The notes under the pieces are model-generated. The model saw only the letters and a program-made list of their open reading frames with translations, searched no databases and was not told where the DNA came from. Both the position numbers and the translations under genes were made by a program. Of a DNA stretch of 64,000 nt, positions 4,224 to 58,182 are shown one piece after another (within the stretch, counting starts at the first letter, position 1; every line of letters starts with the position of its first letter). The DNA is from Escherichia phage pEC-M719-6WT.2. The stretch is from sequence record OQ845958.1, one strand, 5' to 3'.

Positions 4224-4613
4224 ATGAATATAAACAAAATGTATAGCGATGTATCTCCCGACTTATCTACAAGTTGGGATAAAGACGTTGCTAAAGTAAC
4301 TGGCGCAAGGTCTGTTAAGAACAGTCTTCTAGGAATAATCACCACAAGAAAAGGGTCACGGCCTTTTATGCCTGAATTTGGATGTGATATAAGTAATCAG
4401 CTTTTTGAGAATATCACACCGTTAATTACAGATACCATTAAACGCAACATCGTCTCCGCGGTGCGGAACTTCGAACCAAGAATAAGCAATCTACAGGTTG
4501 CAGTTGTCCCTATGTATGATGATAACTCCATTATCGTAACGGTTCAGTTCAGCATTGTTGATGACCCTGATACCCTCGAACAAATCAGGATTCAGCTAAG
4601 TCAAAACGGTTAA
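4224..4613 (+). CDS. 25: Baseplate wedge protein gp25
   Basis: 129 aa; near-identical motifs to T4 gp25 (LLGIITTRKGSRPF.PEFGCD). Confidence 0.95.
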   Translation: MNINKMYSDVSPDLSTSWDKDVAKVTGARSVKNSLLGIITTRKGSRPFMPEFGCDISNQLFENITPLITDTIKRNIVSAVRNFEPRISNLQVAVVPMYDDNSIIVTVQFSIVDDPDTLEQIRIQLSQNG

Positions 4614-4649
4614 TGCTTTAATTTTATGGCTGTATAATGGTTCTAGACC
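4614..4649 (+). promoter_or_regulatory. MotA-box middle-promoter cassette upstream of uvsY (TGCTTTA-N12-TATAAT-GGTTCTAGACC)
   Basis: TGCTTTA 4614-4620, extended -10 TGTATAAT 4631-4638, conserved GGTTCTAGACC 4639-4649. Confidence 0.6.
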
Positions 4650-4666
4650 CTTACATTGGATACATT

Positions 4667-6621: not shown

Positions 6622-8117
6622 ATTTCCACCTGTTTAATTACATAGTTAAACCGTTCATCAGCATATCTTTGTATACGTTCAAGGCCATGCTTTAGGGCAA
6701 AGTTCAAATGAACATATTTCTTTTTAGCATTTGCCGATTTAGGTTTAACACCCATATCGTCAACGATATCAAAAACGTTTGCTTGTGATTTGGATTCATG
6801 TTTTCGAAGCACGCGGCCAATTGTCTGGAGTACAATTACCTTTGACTTGACCGGGTGAGCGAAAATAATATGATGGAGGTTTTTAACGGAAATACCCGTC
6901 GAGAATACACCGTATGAAGCTACAACAATAATTCCTTTTCCATTCTCTGCCATGACCTTTAATGCATTACGAGTTTCGGTATCAACTTCCCCGGAAACAT
7001 AATACACTTTCTCATGACCAGCTTCCTTAAGCATTTCAAACATCGATTTGCCATGCTCGATATTCTTAAACATCAAAAAGACGTTTTCATCTTTTTTAGC
7101 AAGCTTGAGAGCAAGATTTGTTACCCATTTATTTCGGCGTGTAGCTTTTGTAATTACCTTAATTTCATCCTGATAAGTTTTACCTTTCATTTTAACGGTA
7201 AATTCATCAGGGTAACGAAGGAAAATACTATTTATTTTAAGGTCAGTAACCTGTCCATCTTCCATCAATTTAGATGTGGATACTGGTTTAAAGATATCAC
7301 CAAACAGACCCATATATTGCATAAGGTTGGCTTTGCCGTCACGGAGTGAACCTGACAAACCAAATTTAAACGTACAATTCGTAAGGCCTTCGATAACCGT
7401 CGAAATTGATTTACCTGTCGCCATATGACATTCGTCATTCATAAACTGGCCAAACTGTTCAAACCATTCTTTAGGTTGTTTTACAGCCGTCTGATAAGTC
7501 GATACATAAATCATCGCATCAGAATCGCGTTTGGTACCAGAACGAATACCCAGACAAGCTTCACGAGGGAACAGACGATAATCAACAAAGTCATTAATCA
7601 TCTGGTCAACGAGCGCAGTTGTAGGAACAAGGATAAGTACTTTGCCTTCATAGTTCTCGAGATAATATCGCGCCAGAAGCGCCTGGATGAGACTTTTACC
7701 TGCAGACGTAGGTAAGTTCAGAATCTTTCTTCTGTTGACCAGACCATCATATACGGCGTCAGATTGATACCAATGGGGAGTTATCTTGGTATTGCCTGAA
7801 TAGATTTCTTTTGACTCGACCCATTTGTCGAATTCTTCGCGAGAGATTTCTTCTTTCTCTGTGATTTGTGGGTCAATCCAGAATGAATAGCCAAACTGGT
7901 CAGCGAACTTTTTAATTTGATTAACCAAACCGTATGGTAATTTACGATTGTAATCCAGGAGGCGGATTCGTCCGTCCCAAACTCCCTGCTTGAATTTTGG
8001 ATTGAAGCGATAGTTTTCAGCTTCGAAGCTGAAGTAATCACGGAGTTCGTAGAAGATTCCATCTTCACATTCAACATGCACGTGACTAAAATTTAGAAAG
8101 TTGATTTTAATATCCAT
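6618..8117 (-). CDS. uvsW: UvsW DNA/RNA helicase
   Basis: Strong match to T4 UvsW (NLPTSAGKS Walker A, DECH box); track start is a GTG extension, start set to ATG 8115-8117 (MDIKINF). Confidence 0.95.
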   Translation of the reverse strand: MDIKINFLNFSHVHVECEDGIFYELRDYFSFEAENYRFNPKFKQGVWDGRIRLLDYNRKLPYGLVNQIKKFADQFGYSFWIDPQITEKEEISREEFDKWVESKEIYSGNTKITPHWYQSDAVYDGLVNRRKILNLPTSAGKSLIQALLARYYLENYEGKVLILVPTTALVDQMINDFVDYRLFPREACLGIRSGTKRDSDAMIYVSTYQTAVKQPKEWFEQFGQFMNDECHMATGKSISTVIEGLTNCTFKFGLSGSLRDGKANLMQYMGLFGDIFKPVSTSKLMEDGQVTDLKINSIFLRYPDEFTVKMKGKTYQDEIKVITKATRRNKWVTNLALKLAKKDENVFLMFKNIEHGKSMFEMLKEAGHEKVYYVSGEVDTETRNALKVMAENGKGIIVVASYGVFSTGISVKNLHHIIFAHPVKSKVIVLQTIGRVLRKHESKSQANVFDIVDDMGVKPKSANAKKKYVHLNFALKHGLERIQRYADERFNYVIKQVEI

Positions 8118-10351: not shown

Positions 10352-10611
10352 CATTCGCAGAAGAACTACGCCAAATAGCCAAAGAGTCACAAGATAAAGT
10401 TGCAAATGACTTTATTTCTATATTTCGCAAAGTGGCTATTGCCGCCGCCGAGAACGGCAAAGATGCTGTTAATATGGCAGTTTCTGAAAAAGAGTATGAA
10501 GAAGGAAACCGCGCAAAGATATCTGAATTTCTGCGAGCAGAAAAATTTACATCTTTTACCTGGAATTATGATTGGCAAGAATCCAAGCCAATGCTGTATG
10601 TAAAATTCTGA
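10348..10611 (+). CDS. Hypothetical protein (24.2 position)
   Basis: 87 aa ORF with ATGA overlap with the upstream ORF. Confidence 0.45.
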   Translation: MTFAEELRQIAKESQDKVANDFISIFRKVAIAAAENGKDAVNMAVSEKEYEEGNRAKISEFLRAEKFTSFTWNYDWQESKPMLYVKF

Positions 10612-10618
10612 CCCTTTT

Positions 10619-10655
10619 TGCTTCAAATAAAAATGCGGTATAATGGTTCTAGACC
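10619..10655 (+). promoter_or_regulatory. MotA-box middle-promoter cassette (TGCTTCA-N13-TATAAT-GGTTCTAGACC)
   Basis: TGCTTCA 10619-10625, TATAAT 10639-10644, conserved GGTTCTAGACC downstream; upstream of rnlB. Confidence 0.55.
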
Positions 10656-10741
10656 CTTTGTGACTATTAATTCCTTTCAAAGAAAGAAAGTATAGCGGGT
10701 CTAATTTATAATGATATTTATAACATCAAAAGTGAGAGATT

Positions 10742-11749
10742 ATGTTTAAGAAATACAACAGCCTTGAAAATCACTATAATAACAAGTTCATTGAAAAGAT
10801 TCGCCTGCAAGGCTTCACCAGCGGTGAATGGGTAGCTCGTGAGAAAATTCATGGTACCAACTTTTCATTAATCATTGAACAAGACAATGTGACATGCGCG
10901 AAACGCACTGGACCTATTCTACCTGCAGAAGATTTCTATGGTTATGAAATTGTATTAAAGAACTACGCAGATTCTATTAAATCTGTGCAGAAACTTTTGC
11001 AGGATATTAATTACCAGGCTTACCAGATTTATGGCGAGTTTGCTGGTACAGGTATTCAGAAGAATGTGGATTACGGCGATAAAGATTTCTATGTGTTTGA
11101 TATCCGCGTTACTAAGGAAGATGGCTCTGAATCCGTCCTGACTGACACACTTATGGAAGCCTTTTGTATTATTCATAAGTTTAAAGTTGCCCCACGCCTG
11201 GCCACAGGTAGCTTTGAAGACTTGATTAAGCTCCCTAATGACCTGGATTCTGTGGTCCCTGATTACAATTTTACAGTGGATAACGCAGGATTGACTACAG
11301 CAAATACCACTGATTTTGATGCAAAGGTGGAAGGTAAAGTATTCACTGCTGAAGGATTTGTATTAAAACCTGATGTTCCTGCATGGTTACCTAACGGTGA
11401 GCGCGTAGCGATTAAATGCAAGAACTCTAAATTCAGTGAAAAGAAAAAGTCTGATAAGCCTATTAAAGCTGCAGTTGTGTTGTCACAGGAAGACCTGGAT
11501 GTTTTATGGAAGTTCACTGATTATGTGACTGTTAACCGCATCAATAATGTTATCAGTAAGATTGGGGAAGTATCGCCGAAGGATTTTGGGAAGGTAATGG
11601 GTTTGACTGTCCAGGATATCCTGGAAGAAGCGGGTCGTGAAGGCCTTGAATTAACCCAGACGGAAAATCCTGTTGAAGTTAAAAAGCAACTTATCGCAAA
11701 TGTAAGAGAAACATTAAGACATGTTTGGATTGCATTAATTAGTGAATAA
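10742..11749 (+). CDS. rnlB: RNA ligase 2 (Rnl2)
   Basis: 335 aa; very strong match to T4 Rnl2 ([32 protein letters not shown]). Confidence 0.95.
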
Positions 11750-18274: not shown

Positions 18275-18522
18275 TATTCATCGTCCTCATCTTCATCATC
18301 GTCGCCTTCGTCAGCGTCATCAGATTCTTTTTTGTCTTTCTTTTCTGCTTTACCGTCTTCATCATCTTCTTTAGGCTCTTCGCCTTCAATCATGATGGAA
18401 CGTGCAATTTCAATCTTACGTTCTTCAATCAAACTACCGCATACTGGGCCAATGTTTTCAGCAAAATATTTGCGAACGGCTACGAGGTCGTTTGATTTAA
18501 TGGCTTCAAATAAATCATCCAT
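18274..18522 (-). CDS. 67: Prohead core protein gp67
   Basis: 82 aa with highly acidic C-terminal tail; position after gene 20. Confidence 0.8.
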
Positions 18523-20096
18523 TAGAAATCCTCTTCTTCTTCTTCAGGGTTTTGGAAACGAGCCTCTTTGGACTCCAATTCAATTTGCTTAGCTTCTTGA
18601 TTAATTTCTTCATCAGACATCTGGAGGAAGTCCTTCATAGCCGTTTGATGCGAAATATATTTACCGATAAACGGTTCAGCCATCGTTAGCATATTGATTC
18701 TGCGTTCCATGATTTCTGCGTCTTTCATTTCGGTGAAATAGCTATCACGGTTGAACGTAACTTTAATATTATTTAGTTCCTTTTCCCATTCCTCTTCTGA
18801 AATAATTTTTTTCAGGATAAGGTTGGTTTTAAGCGGGTCGAGGAAAACTTCTTCAAATTTATTCTGTAGCTGCCTAATCCATTTAGAGAAATTCAATTCA
18901 TCGCGAGTAATTGTCGCGCCCGCATCAAACATAACGCCGCTGTTTTGGTCATTAGGGATACGAGATAATGGAATTCGGAGAGCCTGATATAGGTTGTTCT
19001 TAAACCAGCGAACATCGTCCATATCCGACATGCCTTGTGCACCCGGGAGTGTATCAACTTCGGTGACTGCTTTACCATCACGACGTTGCAACCAATAGTC
19101 TTCTGTCATTGACATGTTGTGCTGTTGGTTTTTGATTTTACCCGTGGTTGCATCATATACGACACGGTTTTTCATCGTATTCATAATATGTTGCATGTGT
19201 GCTGCTGCTTTACGAGACGGCATATTTCCGGTATCGATATAAAAGACTCGGCGGTCTGGTGCACGAGTTATACGATAAATGACTAAAGCATCTTCTAATA
19301 GTTTTAATTGGTTTGCAGGTTTAATTGCTCGTTGTAAGTATCCGATGATATTCTTACCACAGCAATCGAGTAATCCCGAATGCGCATATACAATCGCCGC
19401 ACGAGGAATTTTTATTTTAGTACCTGCTTCATATATACGACCATCGGCACAATAACTTTCATGACCAGTATCGTATACAAAATATTCTCTGTAACCGTCG
19501 ACAATTTTTGTACCATTTTCCATGCGTGTAACGATTTCACGGATGAACTGGATTTGTCTTGGGTCAAGGCGACGAAGTTCTTGGACCCCATCTTTAAGTT
19601 TTGCTGGGTTGATAATTTTGTGGAAGAAAATTCGAGAATCCACATACCAACGTTTAAAGTGGTCAGAACCTTTACGCTCGAAATTAAGGAGGTTATTAAC
19701 TTCCGCGAATTCTTCAAGGATTCGGTCTTTAATTTTCTGACTAAATTCGGTAGCATCAAGATTAAGAGCTACAACATCTTTACCGTCTTCAAAAACGATA
19801 GCATCAGACACAATTTCTTGCACCGCGTTATCAACTTCATAATTATTTAGTAAGTTGCGGTAGGTGTCAATTAATTCCCTGGTATTTTTTACTTCAGGTT
19901 CATTACTCCCGAACATCTGTTGCATCAATGCATTATACGGGACGTTTTGTTCTTGTGACTCAATTTCGCGAGCCCCATCGTCAAACTTCGGCCCGGTCAT
20001 TGACTCTAAATTATTTTTTTCTTGTTGCTTATATTCTTGTTCATCTTCTTTAGCCCAAGGCTTAAGAAAATTTAGTATTGTGTTAAAACCTGCCAT
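18522..20096 (-). CDS. 20: Portal vertex protein gp20
   Basis: 524 aa, same length as T4 gp20; conserved position upstream of 67/68/21. Confidence 0.95.
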
Positions 20097-20153: not shown

Positions 20154-20645
20154 TTATTCCCACCAGTCAATTGCGAACGTTGCTTCGAACGTTTCAATTT
20201 CGTTGTTACTGTCCCAATCCATCTGGACTTCCCCAACGTTGGTTGGCCACATGCCGGTAATAACAACTTCTTTCGTAACGGTCTTACCATCACGATGGAA
20301 CTGACGAACAGTAGCGGTTTTCTTATAATCAGCAGGAGCTGCACCGGTGATTTCGTTAGTCATACCGTGACACAGGTTTTGCCAATCAACAATTGCTTGA
20401 CGAACTTTATGAGCATCGTCGTTATAAATCGTAATAGTCCAGTCATCAAATGTACGGTCGCCCGCAACGTTGATTTTACGGTTCATGTAACCGACAGGAA
20501 CTTTTTCTACAATGCCAGCAGGCATCGGGGCTGCTTTACAATGGAAAGCAAAGTTTTTACCCAGGAATGGGATTTCGACTTCGAACAGGTTAGGGCGAGC
20601 AAAGTCGCCGGATTCGAAAGCGCGTGTGATATCGGTCAACTCCAT
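20154..20645 (-). CDS. 19: Tail tube protein gp19
   Basis: Matches T4 gp19 (TRAFESGDFARPNLF, VTKE..I.G.WPTNVGE.Q.DWDSNNEI); start set to internal ATG (MELTDI) with AAAGAGGA RBS. Confidence 0.95.
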   Translation of the reverse strand: MELTDITRAFESGDFARPNLFEVEIPFLGKNFAFHCKAAPMPAGIVEKVPVGYMNRKINVAGDRTFDDWTITIYNDDAHKVRQAIVDWQNLCHGMTNEITGAAPADYKKTATVRQFHRDGKTVTKEVVITGMWPTNVGEVQMDWDSNNEIETFEATFAIDWWE

Positions 20646-20696
20646 TAAGGAATCCTCTTTATAGACACAGGTCGCGCGAACGCGTCCCTGATGCAT

Positions 20697-20704
20697 GTAT
20701 TTAT
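20697..20704 (-). promoter_or_regulatory. Late promoter (TATAAATA) for gene 19
   Basis: Plus-strand TATTTATA about 50 nt upstream of the gp19 ATG. Confidence 0.5.
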
Positions 20705-20760
20705 ACTAGGTAATATGATTCATCATCTCAAGATAACGGCTTCCCAGAATCAACTACAGG

Positions 20761-20808
20761 AGCCCGTAGAACCGATTATGCTTTTATTTATACCACTGTA
20801 TAATGGTT
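20761..20808 (+). promoter_or_regulatory. Palindromic middle-promoter-like cassette (TGCTTTT-N13-TATAAT-GGTTCTACGG), oriented antisense to gene 18
   Basis: 10-nt perfect inverted repeat CCGTAGAACC/GGTTCTACGG flanks a MotA box, TATAAT and an internal TATTTATA. Confidence 0.5.
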
Positions 20809-20849
20809 CTACGGTTTCTAACTGATTAATTCATTCTAAGCGATGATAA

Positions 20850-22829
20850 TTATTGTGGCCCAATCAGCTCATCAAAATCAGCACCAGTGCTAGTGGCTAC
20901 GAAGTTAAGAGTGATGTAGTTGATGCTGCGCGCAGGTTTAAAATAAATGCTAGCAACAAACTCATTTCGGTCTATGACCGACGGGGTGTTGTTAGTAGTA
21001 TCACAAACTACACGACCTTCATAAATGCCACCAAGTGCACGAATACCATCCAAGTATTGAGAAGTTTCCATACGGAATGATGCACGAGTGAAGTTATCGT
21101 TAAGCTCAAACAGTTTATATTTGGATGCATCACCGATATTTTTCTTCAGCATATTCGTAAGACGACGAACGTTAATATGGTCCATCGGAGATGGAACTTT
21201 AGTTGCAGTCTTATCACCATACAGAACAAAACCATCACCACCTGCGAAACCAACAACCGGGTTGATAGCTTCTTGATACATGCGGTCACGTTGGGTCTGA
21301 CGTGGTTCAACAGCCAATTTCAGAACGTTCAGAATCTGACCGCGGTTATAACCAGCCGGAGACATCCAAGGCTGAGAAACATCATCAGTACGAGCACACA
21401 GACCAGCCATATCAGCTGCCAGAGGAACCCAACGGTTAACGTCATTATATTTATCATACTGATATTTATAGTTGCCATCAATCGCTGCATAAGTCGTGCT
21501 GATATTCATGTTATCAGTATCAAATGCGCCAGCACCTGTACGCCAGTCAATCAGGTTATCCACTGCACGGGTCAGAGGAACGTTAACCAACAGACCTTTC
21601 GGCGGGGAAATAAATGCCAGACAATCCTGACGTTCGTCAGCAATAGAAACCACGTGTTTCTGAACAGTGGAAGCGGTTGCATCACCTTCACCAGCTACTG
21701 CACCAGCGATAAGCAGGTTAATATGCAGTGCTTCACGGTCAGCAAACAGGTCCCAACCTTGCATCAAATCACCAGCGGTAATCTTATCGTTTGCAGAAAT
21801 ACCACCAGACAGATTGATGATACCACTGAAGCCTGCAGGCCAGTTGCGAGATGTTGCATAGATGTAGTTGGAAGTACCTTTTGCAAAGTAGTCATCCAGA
21901 TAAATGTTATTACCGTAAACATCTTTTTCGCCCTGCTTGGTAGACAAAACAACGTTTTCGACGATTGCACCATCGCGGCGAACGATAATTGCATATTGGT
22001 TTTCAGACTGAGGACCATAGTTAAACACGGCACGAGCCACAGAAGCACGCGTTCCGCCGCCCGGGAAAATATTCAGATTTGCAGCTGCGCCTTTTTCAAA
22101 TTCAGCTTTAGATACGATTTCAACTTCCAGAGTAGAACCGATTTCGCCTGGATAAAGAGCAACAACACCTGGCATTGCATATTTTGCTAATGATGCCTGG
22201 AATTCCAGAGAAGTAATTGCTTCTTCACTGTTTTCTGCTTCAGTCAACAGAATTCCAGAATCGGTAACAATTTTCCCAACAGTGATGGTACCAGATACAC
22301 CAGAAGAAGTGGTTGTAACTTCCGCAGTCCATGCACTACCTAAATTAGGATACTGATTAATAGTTTTGGCAAATGCAATAATCTTATCGGTAGGAATAAA
22401 GATTGCCTGAATTTTACCATCAACGTCGACCTTGGTCACACGGCCAGCCGGTTCAACAACAGTCTGGTTGTGTTTAACCTGAATAACATCACCGACAGCA
22501 TAGTTTGTACCAGCAGTTACGATGGTAGTTTCAATATTGCCAGCAATAGGGGATGCGTTTTTAGCTTCGTCACGGTTAACAACACGTACAGTACGGAGGT
22601 CATTACCATATTGCAGGAAGTTCATCCCACTCATAAAGTAATCTGCTGTTTCATTATTCGGACCACCAAACAAATCAACAAGTTCAACTTCGTTTGTAAT
22701 TTGAGTTACCTGGAAAGCTGGGCCCCACTGGAATTTACCAACCAGCGCCGCACGACCCGTCGCGTTACGAACAACAGTGCTTTGTACCGTTGTTTCTTTG
22801 AGCTCAATGCCCGGGGATAATAAAGCCAT
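20850..22829 (-). CDS. 18: Tail sheath protein gp18
   Basis: 659 aa, same length as T4 gp18; near-identical blocks (LLSPGIELKETTVQSTVV, SPAGYNRGQILNV). Confidence 0.97.
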   Translation of the reverse strand: MALLSPGIELKETTVQSTVVRNATGRAALVGKFQWGPAFQVTQITNEVELVDLFGGPNNETADYFMSGMNFLQYGNDLRTVRVVNRDEAKNASPIAGNIETTIVTAGTNYAVGDVIQVKHNQTVVEPAGRVTKVDVDGKIQAIFIPTDKIIAFAKTINQYPNLGSAWTAEVTTTSSGVSGTITVGKIVTDSGILLTEAENSEEAITSLEFQASLAKYAMPGVVALYPGEIGSTLEVEIVSKAEFEKGAAANLNIFPGGGTRASVARAVFNYGPQSENQYAIIVRRDGAIVENVVLSTKQGEKDVYGNNIYLDDYFAKGTSNYIYATSRNWPAGFSGIINLSGGISANDKITAGDLMQGWDLFADREALHINLLIAGAVAGEGDATASTVQKHVVSIADERQDCLAFISPPKGLLVNVPLTRAVDNLIDWRTGAGAFDTDNMNISTTYAAIDGNYKYQYDKYNDVNRWVPLAADMAGLCARTDDVSQPWMSPAGYNRGQILNVLKLAVEPRQTQRDRMYQEAINPVVGFAGGDGFVLYGDKTATKVPSPMDHINVRRLTNMLKKNIGDASKYKLFELNDNFTRASFRMETSQYLDGIRALGGIYEGRVVCDTTNNTPSVIDRNEFVASIYFKPARSINYITLNFVATSTGADFDELIGPQ

Positions 22830-22858: not shown

Positions 22859-25165
<2,307 letters not shown>

Positions 25166-44334: not shown

Positions 44335-44342
44335 AAAGCCTC

Positions 44343-44375
44343 CATTTATAAATAAGTATATCAATATTTATTAGG
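44343..44375. promoter_or_regulatory. Divergent late-promoter region (TATAAATA for gene 4; near-consensus on the opposite strand for gene 53)
   Basis: CATTTATAAATAAG: plus-strand TATAAATA 44347-44354 lies 29 nt before the gp4 ATG. Confidence 0.55.
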
Positions 44376-44382
44376 AGGCTAT

Positions 44383-44832
44383 ATGGCATACTCCGGGAAA
44401 TTTAAGCCCACTAATATAGAAAAATATAAGGGCGACTGGAAGAAAATACAATACCGGTCAAGCTGGGAGGCTTGGTTGATGAGATGGCTCGACAACCATC
44501 CGAACGTTGTTCAATGGGGCTCTGAGACTGTGATTATTCCATACTTCTGCAATGCTGAAGGGAAAAAGCGCAGATATTATATGGATTTCTGGGTTAAGTT
44601 CGATACGGGACAACAGTTCTTTTTCGAAGTTAAGCCATTAAAAGAAACAAGACCTCCAGCCAAGCCAGTTAATAATACAGCCGCGAGTAAAAAGAGATTT
44701 ATTAACGAGATGTACACCTGGAGCGTTAACTCTGACAAATGGAAAGCTGCGCAAGCTACCGCTGATAAAATGGGCATAACGTTCAGGATAATCACTGAAA
44801 ACTCACTGAAAAAATTAGGATGGAAAGGATGA
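44383..44832 (+). CDS. 4: Head completion protein gp4
   Basis: 149 aa; strong match to T4 gp4 ([41 protein letters not shown]). Confidence 0.95.
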
Positions 44833-57222: not shown

Positions 57223-58182
57223 ATGATGTTAGTTATTGGTTCTCGTGCATTACATAACGCTGGTCTGATTGAAAGTCAGAAAATTGAAAACTCTGATTGG
57301 GACTTCATCGCAGACCAAGGTTCCTGGAACAGCTTTAAAACCCAGATGATGGGACAACACGTGCATGTGGATAACCCAGATGTTCAAGCTTTTAAATGTA
57401 TGCACAATGGTAAAGAAACCTATTTTGAAGCGTACATCGTCCGCGCACTGACAAGTGTTCGTGAATTGACTGATGAGTTACAAGAGGAAGATTTTACCTC
57501 CAGTTATCGTCTGCTCAAATATGCGAAGGCAAATATTCAGAAAGACCGTCTATCTGGTTTTTACTGGGCAACTCCTGATATTTGTCTGGCAATTAAATTG
57601 TCTCATCGTTACCTGAAGAACAATCCATTCTTCCTGAAGACCATGAGTCATATTAATTACCTTCGCAATAAGGGTGTTGTTCTTAATGACGAACTGCAGA
57701 AAATCATGCTGCAACGCCAGGCAGAAACATTGTCGTATAGTCACCCTAAACTAGACGTGGGCAAGAAAACTTTCTTTAATGATACAATCTATACCCTTGA
57801 CCATGACTCCATCCACGAGGCCGTGGCGCTTGCTGATAAGCCTGCATATAAGTTCTATATGAAGGATGATTCAGAAGTCATGACCTCGCGTGAAAAATTT
57901 GAAGCACTCCCTGAGATTATTAAACTGGCAGGGGTTTATGAAGAAGCATGTGTGCTCGCTCTGGAGCGTTCGCAGGTTCCTAATGAGTTCAATATCTCTC
58001 CATCTGTGAGCTTCCATATTGCGCTAGAAAAAGTCTGTACCTCCATTACTTCTGGATGGTTCCGTGAGTACGCCTGGGAACATTACCAGGAAGTGGTTAA
58101 TATGTACAACACCCTGGGCCGCGAAGACTATGTTAAACGTTTCAAGGCTAACCAACATTTAATTCGTCCTTTCGAAAAATAA
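57223..58182 (+). CDS. Hypothetical protein with possible nucleotidyltransferase-fold motif
   Basis: Start set to ATG 57223 after GAGGA RBS; N-terminal IGSRAL-x17-SDWDFI resembles the hG[GS]...D.D NTase signature. Confidence 0.55.
   Translation: MMLVIGSRALHNAGLIESQKIENSDWDFIADQGSWNSFKTQMMGQHVHVDNPDVQAFKCMHNGKETYFEAYIVRALTSVRELTDELQEEDFTSSYRLLKYAKANIQKDRLSGFYWATPDICLAIKLSHRYLKNNPFFLKTMSHINYLRNKGVVLNDELQKIMLQRQAETLSYSHPKLDVGKKTFFNDTIYTLDHDSIHEAVALADKPAYKFYMKDDSEVMTSREKFEALPEIIKLAGVYEEACVLALERSQVPNEFNISPSVSFHIALEKVCTSITSGWFREYAWEHYQEVVNMYNTLGREDYVKRFKANQHLIRPFEK

Follow-up and report, generated by a model that had tools for sequence, protein, structure and literature searches.

T4-like phages carry composite cassettes in which a promoter is combined with a stem-loop, known as PeSLs and PmSLs (Arbiol et al. 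2010, PMC2839356; Comeau et al. 2014, PMC4122927). MotA-dependent middle promoters also form part of the T4 origins ori(34)/oriG and ori(uvsY)/oriF, each of which consists of such a promoter and a downstream unwinding element (Kreuzer and Brister 2010, PMC3016281). In T4, the MotA box follows the consensus (a/t)(a/t)(a/t)TGCTTtA, lies near -30 and is spaced 12 ± 1 bp from the -10 element, and middle promoters have an excellent sigma-70 -10 element (TAtaaT) downstream of this box (PMC2988021). Here, we analysed a palindrome in the spacer between genes 18 and 19 of Escherichia phage pEC-M719-6WT.2, using a 64,000-nt stretch of its DNA (hereafter the window). The window is part of a T4-like genome (genus Gaprivervirus) whose late genes occupy the minus strand, and its identity to Gapriverviruses reaches 99.4%. 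We consider it somewhat better than an even chance that the palindrome is the stem of a composite cassette, in which a middle and a late promoter are opposed to each other and a hairpin forms in read-through RNA. In the literature, we found no paper on the 18-19 site, on Gaprivervirus transcript maps or on "anti-late RNA".

The initial annotation had described a 48-nt imperfect palindrome at 20761–20808 in the gene 18-19 intergenic region. The quoted sequence is found in the window and its location in this spacer is borne out by the homology of gp18 and gp19, but the element itself spans 20764–20814 and is 51 nt long. Its 10-nt arms form a perfect inverted repeat, as had been proposed, with 31 nt between them (Table 1). 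Relative to the plus-strand promoter, the arms occupy positions -47 to -38 and -6 to +4. The stem is extended inward by pairing of ATTAT with ATAAT, the -10 hexamer without its first base, and RNAalifold retains three of these pairs. No other copies of the arms exist in the window, where the promoter core alone recurs. Both of the TATAAT-like hexamers that had been noted are present, TATAAT on the plus strand and CATAAT (20780–20775) on the minus strand, but the latter does not hold up as a promoter and most plausibly represents the complement of the -10 hexamer that extends the stem.

Table 1. Features of the gene 18-19 spacer and its flanking genes, in window coordinates.
Feature	Position	Strand	Description
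Gene 19 (tail tube, gp19)	20154–20645	-	Assigned by homology; 100% identity over 163 aa
Proximal late promoter of gene 19 (predicted)	20698–20705	-	16-nt direct repeat (repeat family D1) shared with the distal promoter
Outer helix, 3' side	20743–20761	-	From RNA folds
Left arm, CCGTAGAACC	20764–20773		3' half of the hairpin in late-sense (minus-strand) RNA
Inner stem extension, ATTAT	20775–20779		Pairs with ATAAT (20800–20804), with a 1-nt bulge at 20774
MotA box, TTATGCTTTTA	20776–20786	+	Matches the T4 consensus; 12–13 bp upstream of the -10 hexamer
Predicted late start	20779	-	6th nt after the octamer; from T4 late-promoter geometry
Distal late promoter of gene 19 (predicted), TATAAATA	20785–20792	-	Exact octamer in the loop, inside the spacer of the plus-strand promoter
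-10 hexamer, TATAAT	20799–20804	+	6/6 match, followed by GG
Right arm, GGTTCTACGG	20805–20814		Positions -6 to +4 of the predicted plus-strand middle promoter
Predicted antisense middle start, A20811	20811	+	7th nt after the -10 hexamer; by analogy with T4 PuvsY
Outer helix, 5' side	20817–20840	-	In read-through RNA from gene 18; from RNA folds
Gene 18 (tail sheath, gp18)	20850–22829	-	Assigned by homology

Analysis of the plus strand predicted a MotA/AsiA-dependent middle promoter that is oriented antisense to gene 18. Its MotA box ends in A if the spacer is taken as 12 bp and in T if it is taken as 13 bp, and the other middle-promoter modules in the window have an identical layout of MotA box and -10 hexamer. 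The mapped start of T4 PuvsY (115371) is the seventh nucleotide after TATAAT (gaatctA), and the start of the antisense transcript was placed accordingly. Between Gaprivervirus and Dhakavirus, the spacer is best conserved in the block GTATAATGG. VR20, a 97%-identical relative, encodes motA (VR20_271) and asiA (VR20_264), both of which lie outside the 64-kb window, and it also encodes gp55 and gp33. Plain sigma-70 promoters were rejected in either direction. The rightward TATAAT has no -35 element (TTATGC occupies its place) but does have a MotA box, while the leftward CATAAT has neither a usable -35 element nor a MotA partner, the best candidate in a promoter scan being a poor TATACA (9/12), and the minus strand contains no MotA box.

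The loop holds a late-promoter octamer in the minus orientation, as had been noticed initially, at a distance of 140 nt upstream of the gene 19 ATG and on the same strand. The octamer of T4 late promoters, which are of the gp55/gp33/gp45 type, occupies positions -13 to -6. The window has 22 late octamers where 5.35 would be expected, and their orientation follows that of the late genes; an octamer that overlaps a MotA box and a -10 hexamer occurs once in the VR20 genome. The T4 18-19 spacer likewise contains two late octamers. From these observations, we infer a leftward gp55-type late promoter with its octamer at 20792 to 20785, which would feed gene 19 jointly with the proximal late promoter, so that gene 19 would be served by two late promoters. 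The idea of a bidirectional promoter is favoured as far as two opposed promoters are concerned, but their form differs from the one envisaged, with a MotA-type middle promoter reading rightward and a late octamer leftward. Because the same 30 bp are shared, the middle and late promoters could not be occupied simultaneously, and such mutual exclusion would fit a hand-over from middle to late transcription. The RNA from the plus-strand promoter would be non-coding and antisense to gene 18 at its 3' end; gene 18 would both supply the read-through RNA and be targeted by the antisense transcript.

Folding of the minus-strand RNA gave an energy of -32.5 kcal/mol (z = -4.5), and the plus-strand RNA folds about as well (z = -4.7), so the energy does not choose between the strands. 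The outer helix, in comparison, is limited to the minus-strand RNA because its pairing needs three G-U pairs. Changes in the outer helix among relatives are one-sided and keep the pairing, and are not significant; covariation within the genus is not significant either, as the inner stem is invariant and values as high as those observed also arise in the shuffle controls. Late RNA from the predicted start at 20779, for which a fold was computed as well, would carry only the 3' half of the stem. RNAs from either internal promoter would stay unfolded because one arm is missing, and the read-through RNA from gene 18 would be the sole RNA that has both arms and is able to fold, its hairpin comprising 15 bp, or about 33 bp when the outer helix is included.

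Several conventional roles of such a hairpin were considered and rejected. On the late-sense strand, the hairpin continues into GGGCUCCUGUAG without a U-run (the plus-strand continuation is UUUCUAAC), and it is therefore not a classical intrinsic terminator; a terminator scan returned a weak 6-bp site overlapping the arm and nothing else. Sequestration of a ribosome-binding site was discarded as well, since the 3' arm ends at 20764 and the Shine-Dalgarno sequence and ATG of gene 19 (approximately 20645–20660) are about 100 nt away and unpaired. Nor is a hairpin a general habit of late promoters, as the octamer described here is the only one of the 22 in the window that is strongly structured. 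A covariance-model search against Rfam 15 yielded no match with E ≤ 1 at 20500–21300 on either strand. We infer that the hairpin may mark or protect the 3' end of the gene 18 mRNA, or may attenuate read-through or act as an insulator.

GGTTCTA is the conserved downstream core of a middle-promoter family, and the right arm corresponds to the conserved -6 to +4 core of this family. The core TATAATGGTTCTA also occurs at 4633 (+), 10639 (+) and 45705 (-) of the window and at six sites in VR20, where TATAATGGTTCT is likewise found six times. Identical TATAATGGTTCTA cores lie upstream of uvsY and rnlB, and the T4 homologues of these two promoters are mapped middle promoters. VR20 contains three antisense GGTTCTA modules, all of them inside perfect inverted repeats of at least 10 nt; the VR20 genome (170 kb) has 21 such repeats, three of which fall exactly on the antisense copies. 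The three copies have stems of unrelated sequence. All four strong antisense MotA-type promoters of VR20 have TATAATGGT in common with PuvsY, the oriF homologue.

These shared sequences also bear on another explanation, drawn by analogy with oriF and oriG, in which an R-loop origin is built around the antisense middle promoter, whose non-coding transcript would remain hybridised in the A+T-rich DNA downstream and prime leading-strand synthesis, with the palindrome as an accessory. The distribution of TATAATGGT is consistent with it, and T4 oriG is itself an antisense, non-coding middle promoter inside the late gene 34 that is conserved in VR20. The region after the predicted antisense start is in agreement too, offering just a 16-codon ORF with no Shine-Dalgarno sequence and an RNA whose first 150 nt are unstructured (z = +0.9). 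However, the A+T content from +1 to +50 is 66% versus 59% for the window, and 31% of 50-nt windows are equally or more A+T-rich, so that the region is not distinctive as an A+T-rich unwinding element. In addition, the T4 18-19 spacer has no such promoter or known origin, and PrnlB and the nrdC.6 promoter contain the same core and are ordinary sense promoters. We regard an origin at this site as improbable. A related proposal is that a family of non-coding antisense MotA-promoter cassettes, located in the 18-19, 2-3 and srd-modA spacers and in the oriG homologue in gene 34, might serve as R-loop origins or as generators of antisense RNA, the palindrome coupling their firing to the termination of the opposing sense transcript. 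The members share TATAATGGT, the three intergenic copies and PuvsY have TATAATGGTTCTA, and each intergenic copy sits in a long inverted repeat; we put this proposal forward as a doubtful one.

Comparison of the relatives revealed that the palindrome is far less variable than its surroundings. In an alignment of the 10 relatives that lack gene 19.1, the variable extra gene of the 18-19 spacer, 1 of 51 columns varies in the palindrome versus 19 of 49 in the flanks (Fisher p = 2e-6). Genomes of the RZ/VR7 type retain the arms, although the loop and both flanks are changed, and have a different outer stem. The conservation of the palindrome, which the initial annotation had named as a check, stands in these genomes but not in VR26 and the Dhakaviruses, where the arms are missing and the promoter core is kept; VR26 is viable without the arms. 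Different inverted repeats surround the same promoter in VR26 and the Dhakaviruses. At the homologous place, the Dhakavirus stem is CCCAGGC/GCCTGGG. Two double changes and two G-C to G-U changes set it apart, the G-U pairs forming on the late-sense RNA only, and the match between the Dhakavirus and Gaprivervirus outer stems depends on an ambiguous short alignment. The fold of AnYang is weak (z = -1.8). A hairpin after gene 18 is common to T4, Mosigvirus, Jiaodavirus and Winklervirus, and in the first three a late octamer lies against or across the 3' arm of a hairpin. A scan of IMG/VR with the core pattern recovered VR20, VR25 and VR26 only.

The alignment also indicated that the left arm belongs to an 11-nt insertion, CGTAGAACCGA, which is specific to most Gapriverviruses and absent from VR26 and the Dhakaviruses, and which is the exact reverse complement of the promoter core in the right arm. 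Such an insertion could have arisen by template switching (a quasi-palindrome event) that copied the core in inverted form, leaving functional promoters and arms that are a functionless by-product. The lack of covariation in the inner stem is compatible with this explanation, and so is the frequency of such repeats: about 3.6 perfect 10-nt inverted repeats with a loop of at most 40 nt (seed count) are expected by chance per random 64 kb of the same composition and 7 loci are present in the window, so the inverted repeat alone is not significant. Against it, the arms are invariant where the flanks differ, and they are kept across the RZ/VR7 lineage despite the changed loop and flanks. The alternative inverted repeats around the same promoter in VR26 and the Dhakaviruses, and the long inverted repeats around all three antisense modules of VR20, point in the same direction. 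On the grounds of fold, conservation and the coincidence of inverted repeats with the antisense modules of VR20, the palindrome is real, conserved and non-random, and we think it unlikely that the arms are a mere by-product.

The inverted repeat might instead act at the level of DNA, either as an operator through which a dimeric phage protein controls both promoters or as a cruciform; a protein-binding site and a cruciform had both been suggested initially. The half-site GGTTCTA occurs at the same position in six promoters, three times as the near-palindrome GGTTCTAGACC, and the arms flank both promoter cores symmetrically, which speaks for a DNA-level site. In the 18-19 element, however, the half-sites point towards each other with their starts separated by 41 bp, whereas they are adjacent at the other promoters, and there is no known candidate for the binding protein. 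An unpaired spacer of 21–31 nt disfavours cruciform extrusion, and the spacer of this element has that length; the G-U pairs of the outer helix can form only as minus-strand RNA. A DNA-level site is quite unlikely, the cruciform included.

Very unlikely, finally, is a mobile or recombinogenic element of the PeSL/PmSL type or a recognition site for gene 19.1, with an indel hot spot as its main significance: gene 19.1 (phrog_5104) occurs variably at two different spacer positions across Gaprivervirus, Dhakavirus and Serratia phage 4S, and PmSLs with a Mot box are described in phage nt-1 (PMC4122927), but in RZ the 19.1 junction falls outside the palindrome, about 28 nt beyond its right side, the 19.1 flanks are not two copies of one cassette, the cassette is antisense with no downstream gene, unlike PeSLs, and 19.1 has no recognisable nuclease domain in Pfam or PDB. 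Gene 19.1 as a homing endonuclease was likewise dropped, as neither database gave support and the sole match was phrog_5104, of unknown function. By eye, gene 19.1 shows an HNH-like motif, which is unconfirmed.

If the composite cassette is correct, a 51-bp element would combine a middle promoter, a late promoter on the opposite strand and an RNA hairpin that forms only upon read-through at one site, representing a compact temporal switch in the middle of the tail and head operon. It would also place a non-coding antisense promoter in a structural-gene spacer, where T4 has no such promoter at the same site. The wrapped antisense modules share the core with PuvsY and its first bases, TATAATGGT, with the oriG homologue, which provides a testable lead on replication start sites in T4-like phages other than T4 and on antisense RNA directed against late genes. 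Should these predictions fail, the element would be an ordinary conserved hairpin beside a late promoter.

The spacer hairpins of T4, Mosigvirus, Jiaodavirus and Winklervirus resemble the 18-19 element in that they directly follow gene 18 and precede or overlap TATAAATA for gene 19. Those hairpins differ in being short and rich in G+C, with small loops and an octamer abutting the 3' arm, and none of the spacers contains an antisense MotA-type promoter. The T4 type of late promoter within a hairpin (e, soc, I-TevI, segB, and mobE of Aeh1) shares with our locus an octamer inside the hairpin, so that transcripts from the late promoter would be without the 5' arm and the read-through RNA alone would fold (PMC2988022, PMC3014915). 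In those cases the 3' arm sequesters the ribosome-binding site of the next gene, whereas here the Shine-Dalgarno sequence of gene 19 lies about 100 nt beyond the arm. A classical version of the hairpin with a late promoter is seen elsewhere in the window, at gene 4 (44336–44383).

The likeness to PeSLs and PmSLs lies in an intergenic promoter with a stem-loop between the upstream box and the -10 element, or over the -10 element (PMC2839356), and in the presence of several copies with a common core per genome, next to indels of non-essential genes. In contrast to them, the 18-19 cassette opposes its flanking genes and is followed by neither an ORF nor a Shine-Dalgarno sequence, its loop holds a late promoter on the opposite strand, the stems of its paralogous copies are unrelated in sequence, and it is located in a conserved structural module instead of a hyperplastic region. 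Relative to oriF and oriG, the cassette is intergenic and not within a gene, T4 has nothing at this place, the downstream A+T content is not distinctive, and oriF and oriG have no enclosing palindrome. The resemblance to oriG consists in a MotA-type promoter that is non-coding and antisense to a late structural gene. With both origins, the start of the core, TATAATGG, is identical, and the uvsY promoter of this phage has the identical TATAATGGTTCTA core.

Forty-one phage records match a 901-nt stretch around the palindrome (top identity of 99.4%), and nearly all of them belong to Gaprivervirus (Tevenvirinae, T4-like; VR7, VR20, SP18, and UPEC07). The minus strand is the strand of the late genes at this locus, and the coordinates of genes 18 and 19 therefore place the palindrome inside the 204-nt spacer between them. 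The palindrome sequence quoted in the initial annotation is present in the window and its perfect arms were borne out, with the coordinates shifted by 3-6 nt; the true span is 51 nt. The arms, CCGTAGAACC and GGTTCTACGG, are separated by 31 nt, and the stem extends inward past them (ATTAT/ATAAT, with one bulged base). Perfect 10-nt inverted repeats with loops of up to 40 nt occur at 7 loci in the window, against ~3.6 seeds expected in random sequence of the same composition; such repeats are not rare, so a 10-nt repeat by itself proves nothing. The non-random character of the palindrome follows from its strong folds, its invariance relative to the flanks, and its octamer. Secondary-structure prediction, suggested with the initial annotation, gave -32.5 kcal/mol (z = -4.5) for the minus-strand RNA and z = -4.1 for single-stranded DNA. 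In ten aligned relatives without gene 19.1, a variable extra gene of this spacer, 1/51 columns is variable in the palindrome vs 19/49 for the two flanks taken together (p = 2e-6 by Fisher's test), and the octamer in its loop is the only one of 22 late octamers in the window held inside a strong hairpin. The sole variable column, 20793, has each of the four bases in at least one of the ten relatives; it directly adjoins the octamer, within the middle-promoter spacer.

Coordinates of the features discussed (in the window unless another genome is named)
Feature	Position	Strand
Gene 20	18522-20096	-
Gene 19 (tail tube)	20154-20645	-
Gene 18 (tail sheath)	20850-22829	-
Gene 17	22862-24694	-
Palindrome	20764-20814	
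Left arm; right arm	20764-20773; 20805-20814	
MotA box; -10 TATAAT (predicted)	20776-20786; 20799-20804	+
Late octamer TATAAATA, distal; proximal	20785-20792; 20698-20705	-
Outer pairs	20817-20840 with 20743-20761	-
Gene 19 leader tetraloop hairpin	20672-20683	-
Antisense ORF within gene 18	21177-22190	+
Module copies, uvsY; rnlB	4633; 10639	+
Module copy, gene 2-3 spacer	45705	-
Middle-promoter modules, uvsY; rnlB	4600-4665; 10610-10745	+
Late octamer facing rnlB promoter	10715-10722	-
Gene 2-3 inverted repeat	45665-45712	
Gene 4 hairpin	44336-44383	+
GATGGGATAA...TTATCCCATC variant	~48988	
VR20 srd-modA paralogue (L021)	10958-11030	
VR20 GATGGGATAA...TTATCCCATC hairpins, record (L022)	57681-57711 (7681-7711), 71815-71847 (21815-21847), 72150-72180 (22150-22180)	
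Gene 19.1 in relatives	L001 2242-2847, L003 2242-2847, L004 2050-2733, L006 2227-2877, L027, L029	

A local search with the spacer as the query revealed that CTGTATAATGGTTCTA recurs in the window, and the aligned sites share one module, TGCTT(T/C)A, 12-13 nt, and TATAATGGTTCTAGACC, of which the palindrome carries the variant TGCTTTTA-N12-TATAATGGTTCTACGG on the plus strand. A T4 middle promoter is defined by a MotA box, (a/t)(a/t)(a/t)TGCTTtA, with its centre at -30, and by a good sigma-70 -10 placed 12 +/- 1 bp away (PMC2988021); the palindrome module fits this definition. Two copies lie immediately upstream of uvsY and rnlB, and the T4 promoters PuvsY and PrnlB are middle promoters mapped experimentally, with the PuvsY start at the seventh base past TATAAT, the A of gaatctA. 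By analogy, the start here would be A20811, in ggttctA. The module match and the mapped T4 homologues therefore make the right arm positions -6 to +4 of a predicted MotA-dependent promoter; MotA, AsiA, gp55, and gp33 are encoded by the relative VR20 (97% identical at the locus). This promoter is predicted to face right and to transcribe the 3' end of gene 18 in antisense, and no plausible ORF lies downstream of its start (16 codons only, without a ribosome binding site). A 337-codon antisense ORF farther into gene 18 is probably a codon-bias artefact. The T4 gene 18-19 spacer contains no MotA box and no TATAAT, and no middle promoter is listed there. Near-identical modules precede uvsY (the T4 oriF/PuvsY homologue) and rnlB; the rnlB promoter is faced by an opposite-strand late octamer, and AGACCC in the rnlB leader is able to pair with GGGTCT. 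A middle promoter plus an A+T-rich region downstream is the minimal R-loop origin (PMC3016281), and an origin of the T4 oriF/oriG type could agree with this definition and with the shared core; the A+T content downstream is not distinctive, however, and we consider such an origin unlikely.

The minus-orientation octamer noted in the initial annotation was found in the loop, and a second copy lies closer to gene 19, both within a 16-nt direct repeat. Since the distal octamer sits within the middle-promoter spacer, it overlaps the MotA box as TGCTTTTATTTATA. In late promoters, the octamer usually occupies -13 to -6, which puts the predicted late start near 20779 (-). With ~30 bp common to both promoters, simultaneous occupancy would be impossible. 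Of the 32 octamers in VR20, only this one overlaps an opposite-strand MotA core and -10. The proposed bidirectional promoter was thus right in spirit, in that two opposed promoters are predicted, but it takes another form, a rightward middle and a leftward late promoter. Downstream of the proximal late promoter, the gene 19 leader carries a CGCG-UUCG-CGCG tetraloop hairpin, of which UPEC01, TH15, and TH54 have a UACG version, likewise a UNCG loop. Gene 4 shows the classical T4 design: a hairpin, AGCCTCC/GGAGGCT, holds TATAAATA in its loop and its 3' arm is the Shine-Dalgarno sequence, so late transcripts would free the ribosome binding site.

In VR20, TATAATGGTTCT occurs in six copies, in sense orientation at PuvsY, PrnlB, and the nrdC.6 promoter and antisense in the gene 18-19, gene 2-3, and srd-modA spacers. 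A relaxed MotA-type scan of VR20 yielded four strong antisense candidates, three intergenic and one the T4 ori(34)/oriG homologue inside gene 34, all reading TATAATGGT. Three of the 21 perfect inverted repeats in VR20 (at least 10 nt, loops of up to 60 nt) lie exactly on the three intergenic modules; with 3/3 enclosed, an antisense promoter within a repeat is thus a pattern and not a single case. The window's gene 2-3 copy has a perfect 10-nt repeat, TCAGTGTTAT/ATAACACTGA, enclosing the minus-strand MotA-type promoter TGCTTTA-N13-TATAATGGTTCTAGACC, antisense into genes 2 and 4; on the late-sense (+) strand its hairpin is followed by UUGUUUU and is terminator-like. The cassette has its closest paralogue, CGCTTTTATTTTTACTGTG-TATAATGGTTCTA, in the VR20 srd-modA spacer; this copy is antisense to early genes, enclosed by CATTATACAC/GTGTATAATG, and without a late octamer. 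That the palindrome is one of a family of hairpin-wrapped antisense promoters acting as replication origins or antisense-RNA generators is a doubtful proposition. VR20 also repeats the hairpin GATGGGATAA...TTATCCCATC between internal-protein genes, with a TATAAT-like sequence in the loop, which looks like PeSL-type promoter-stem-loops; the window has a variant with an imperfect partner arm.

Comparison with relatives gave a mixed picture of conservation, the check named in the initial annotation: the arms are invariant in ten relatives and kept in the RZ/VR7 type, but the palindrome is absent from VR26 and the left arm from Dhakaviruses. In RZ, VR7, DK-13, TH57, and DCP80, gene 19.1 lies between palindrome and gene 18, the arms are kept 10/10, the loop and both flanks are changed, and the outer stem is different. 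In VR26, where a 19.1 gene immediately precedes gene 19, TGCTTTTATTTATA-N6-TATAATGG is retained but both arms are missing; in their place is CCGTGTTAT/ATAACACGG, and its 5' arm on the late-sense strand overlaps the octamer. In Dhakaviruses (AnYang, VR5, JS98, and IME540), GTATAATGGTT is the most conserved block of the spacer, with a degenerate box (CGCTGTA), no late octamer, and CCCAGGC/GCCTGGG enclosing it. Functionless arms left by a templated insertion would agree with the arm loss in VR26 and with the left arm being an 11-nt insertion, CGTAGAACCGA, in the cross-genus alignment (absent from VR26 and Dhakaviruses); this reading fits poorly with arm invariance and the 3/3 antisense-module pattern and appears improbable. 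T4, Mosigvirus, Jiaodavirus, and Winklervirus have a short G+C-rich hairpin directly after gene 18 and no antisense MotA-type promoter in the spacer; a late octamer lies next to, or overlaps, the 3' arm of a hairpin in T4, Mosigvirus, and Jiaodavirus. A hairpin plus late promoter following gene 18 is thus a general feature, Gaprivervirus and Dhakavirus have the antisense promoter in common, and the octamer in the loop with a perfect inner palindrome is Gaprivervirus-specific.

Analysis of the possible transcripts indicated that both halves of the palindrome are present solely in RNA reading through from gene 18: RNA begun at 20811 (+) holds only 4 nt of it, and RNA begun at 20779 (-) only the 3' half (z = -1.3). 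The minus-strand fold gains ~18 outer pairs, including three G-U pairs impossible on the other strand; plus-strand RNA likewise folds well, with a different extension. Within the genus, outer-pair variants are one-sided changes that keep pairing, in counts not above shuffle controls, and the inner stem is invariant. A helix on the late-sense RNA is supported by the differences between the outer stem of the window and the Dhakavirus stem (two double changes plus two from G-C to G-U), but the right side of the alignment is uncertain by 1-2 nt. AnYang folds weakly (z = -1.8). No Rfam family matches the element, and the literature search found no paper on this spacer site. As for a DNA operator or cruciform, the half-site GGTTCTA does occur at other promoters too, but the half-sites here are wrongly spaced and the outer pairs are specific to RNA, making it very unlikely.

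Gene 19.1 (201-227 aa, phrog_5104, function not assigned, no Pfam or PDB match) is not in the window; it occupies two different positions in the spacer of some Gapriverviruses, Dhakavirus IME540, and Serratia phage 4S. Upstream of it, RZ has a further hairpin, GCGCGTAT...ATACGCGC, that overlaps a late octamer. A PeSL-like cassette that is mobile or recombinogenic, or a target of 19.1, would suit a spacer that is a hot spot for indels, but has slightly less chance still than an operator: in RZ, ~28 nt separate the 19.1 junction from the palindrome, and no nuclease domain is recognisable in 19.1.

We think it somewhat probable that the cassette combines an antisense non-coding middle promoter, a gene 19 late promoter, and a hairpin of gene 18 read-through RNA. 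The motif identities are well supported; we infer the promoter activities, start sites, and hairpin role. The hairpin would mark or protect gene 18 RNA at its 3' end, or attenuate read-through, gene 19 meanwhile being re-initiated from its two late promoters, and the promoter DNA in common may allow a middle-to-late hand-over. Among described elements, the nearest in kind is the composite promoter-stem-loop motif (PeSL/PmSL) of T4-like phages. A PeSL has its stem-loop either overlapping the -10 or placed between it and the upstream box; phage nt-1 has a Mot-box version, and the motifs are located near indels (PMC2839356, PMC4122927). In contrast to these motifs, the cassette is antisense without a downstream gene, has an opposite-strand late promoter, and is located in the structural module. 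It partly resembles the T4 genes e, soc, and I-TevI, with late promoters in hairpins (PMC2988022, PMC3014915), but its hairpin sequesters no ribosome binding site. Like oriG, it places an antisense MotA promoter, here a predicted one, in a late region.
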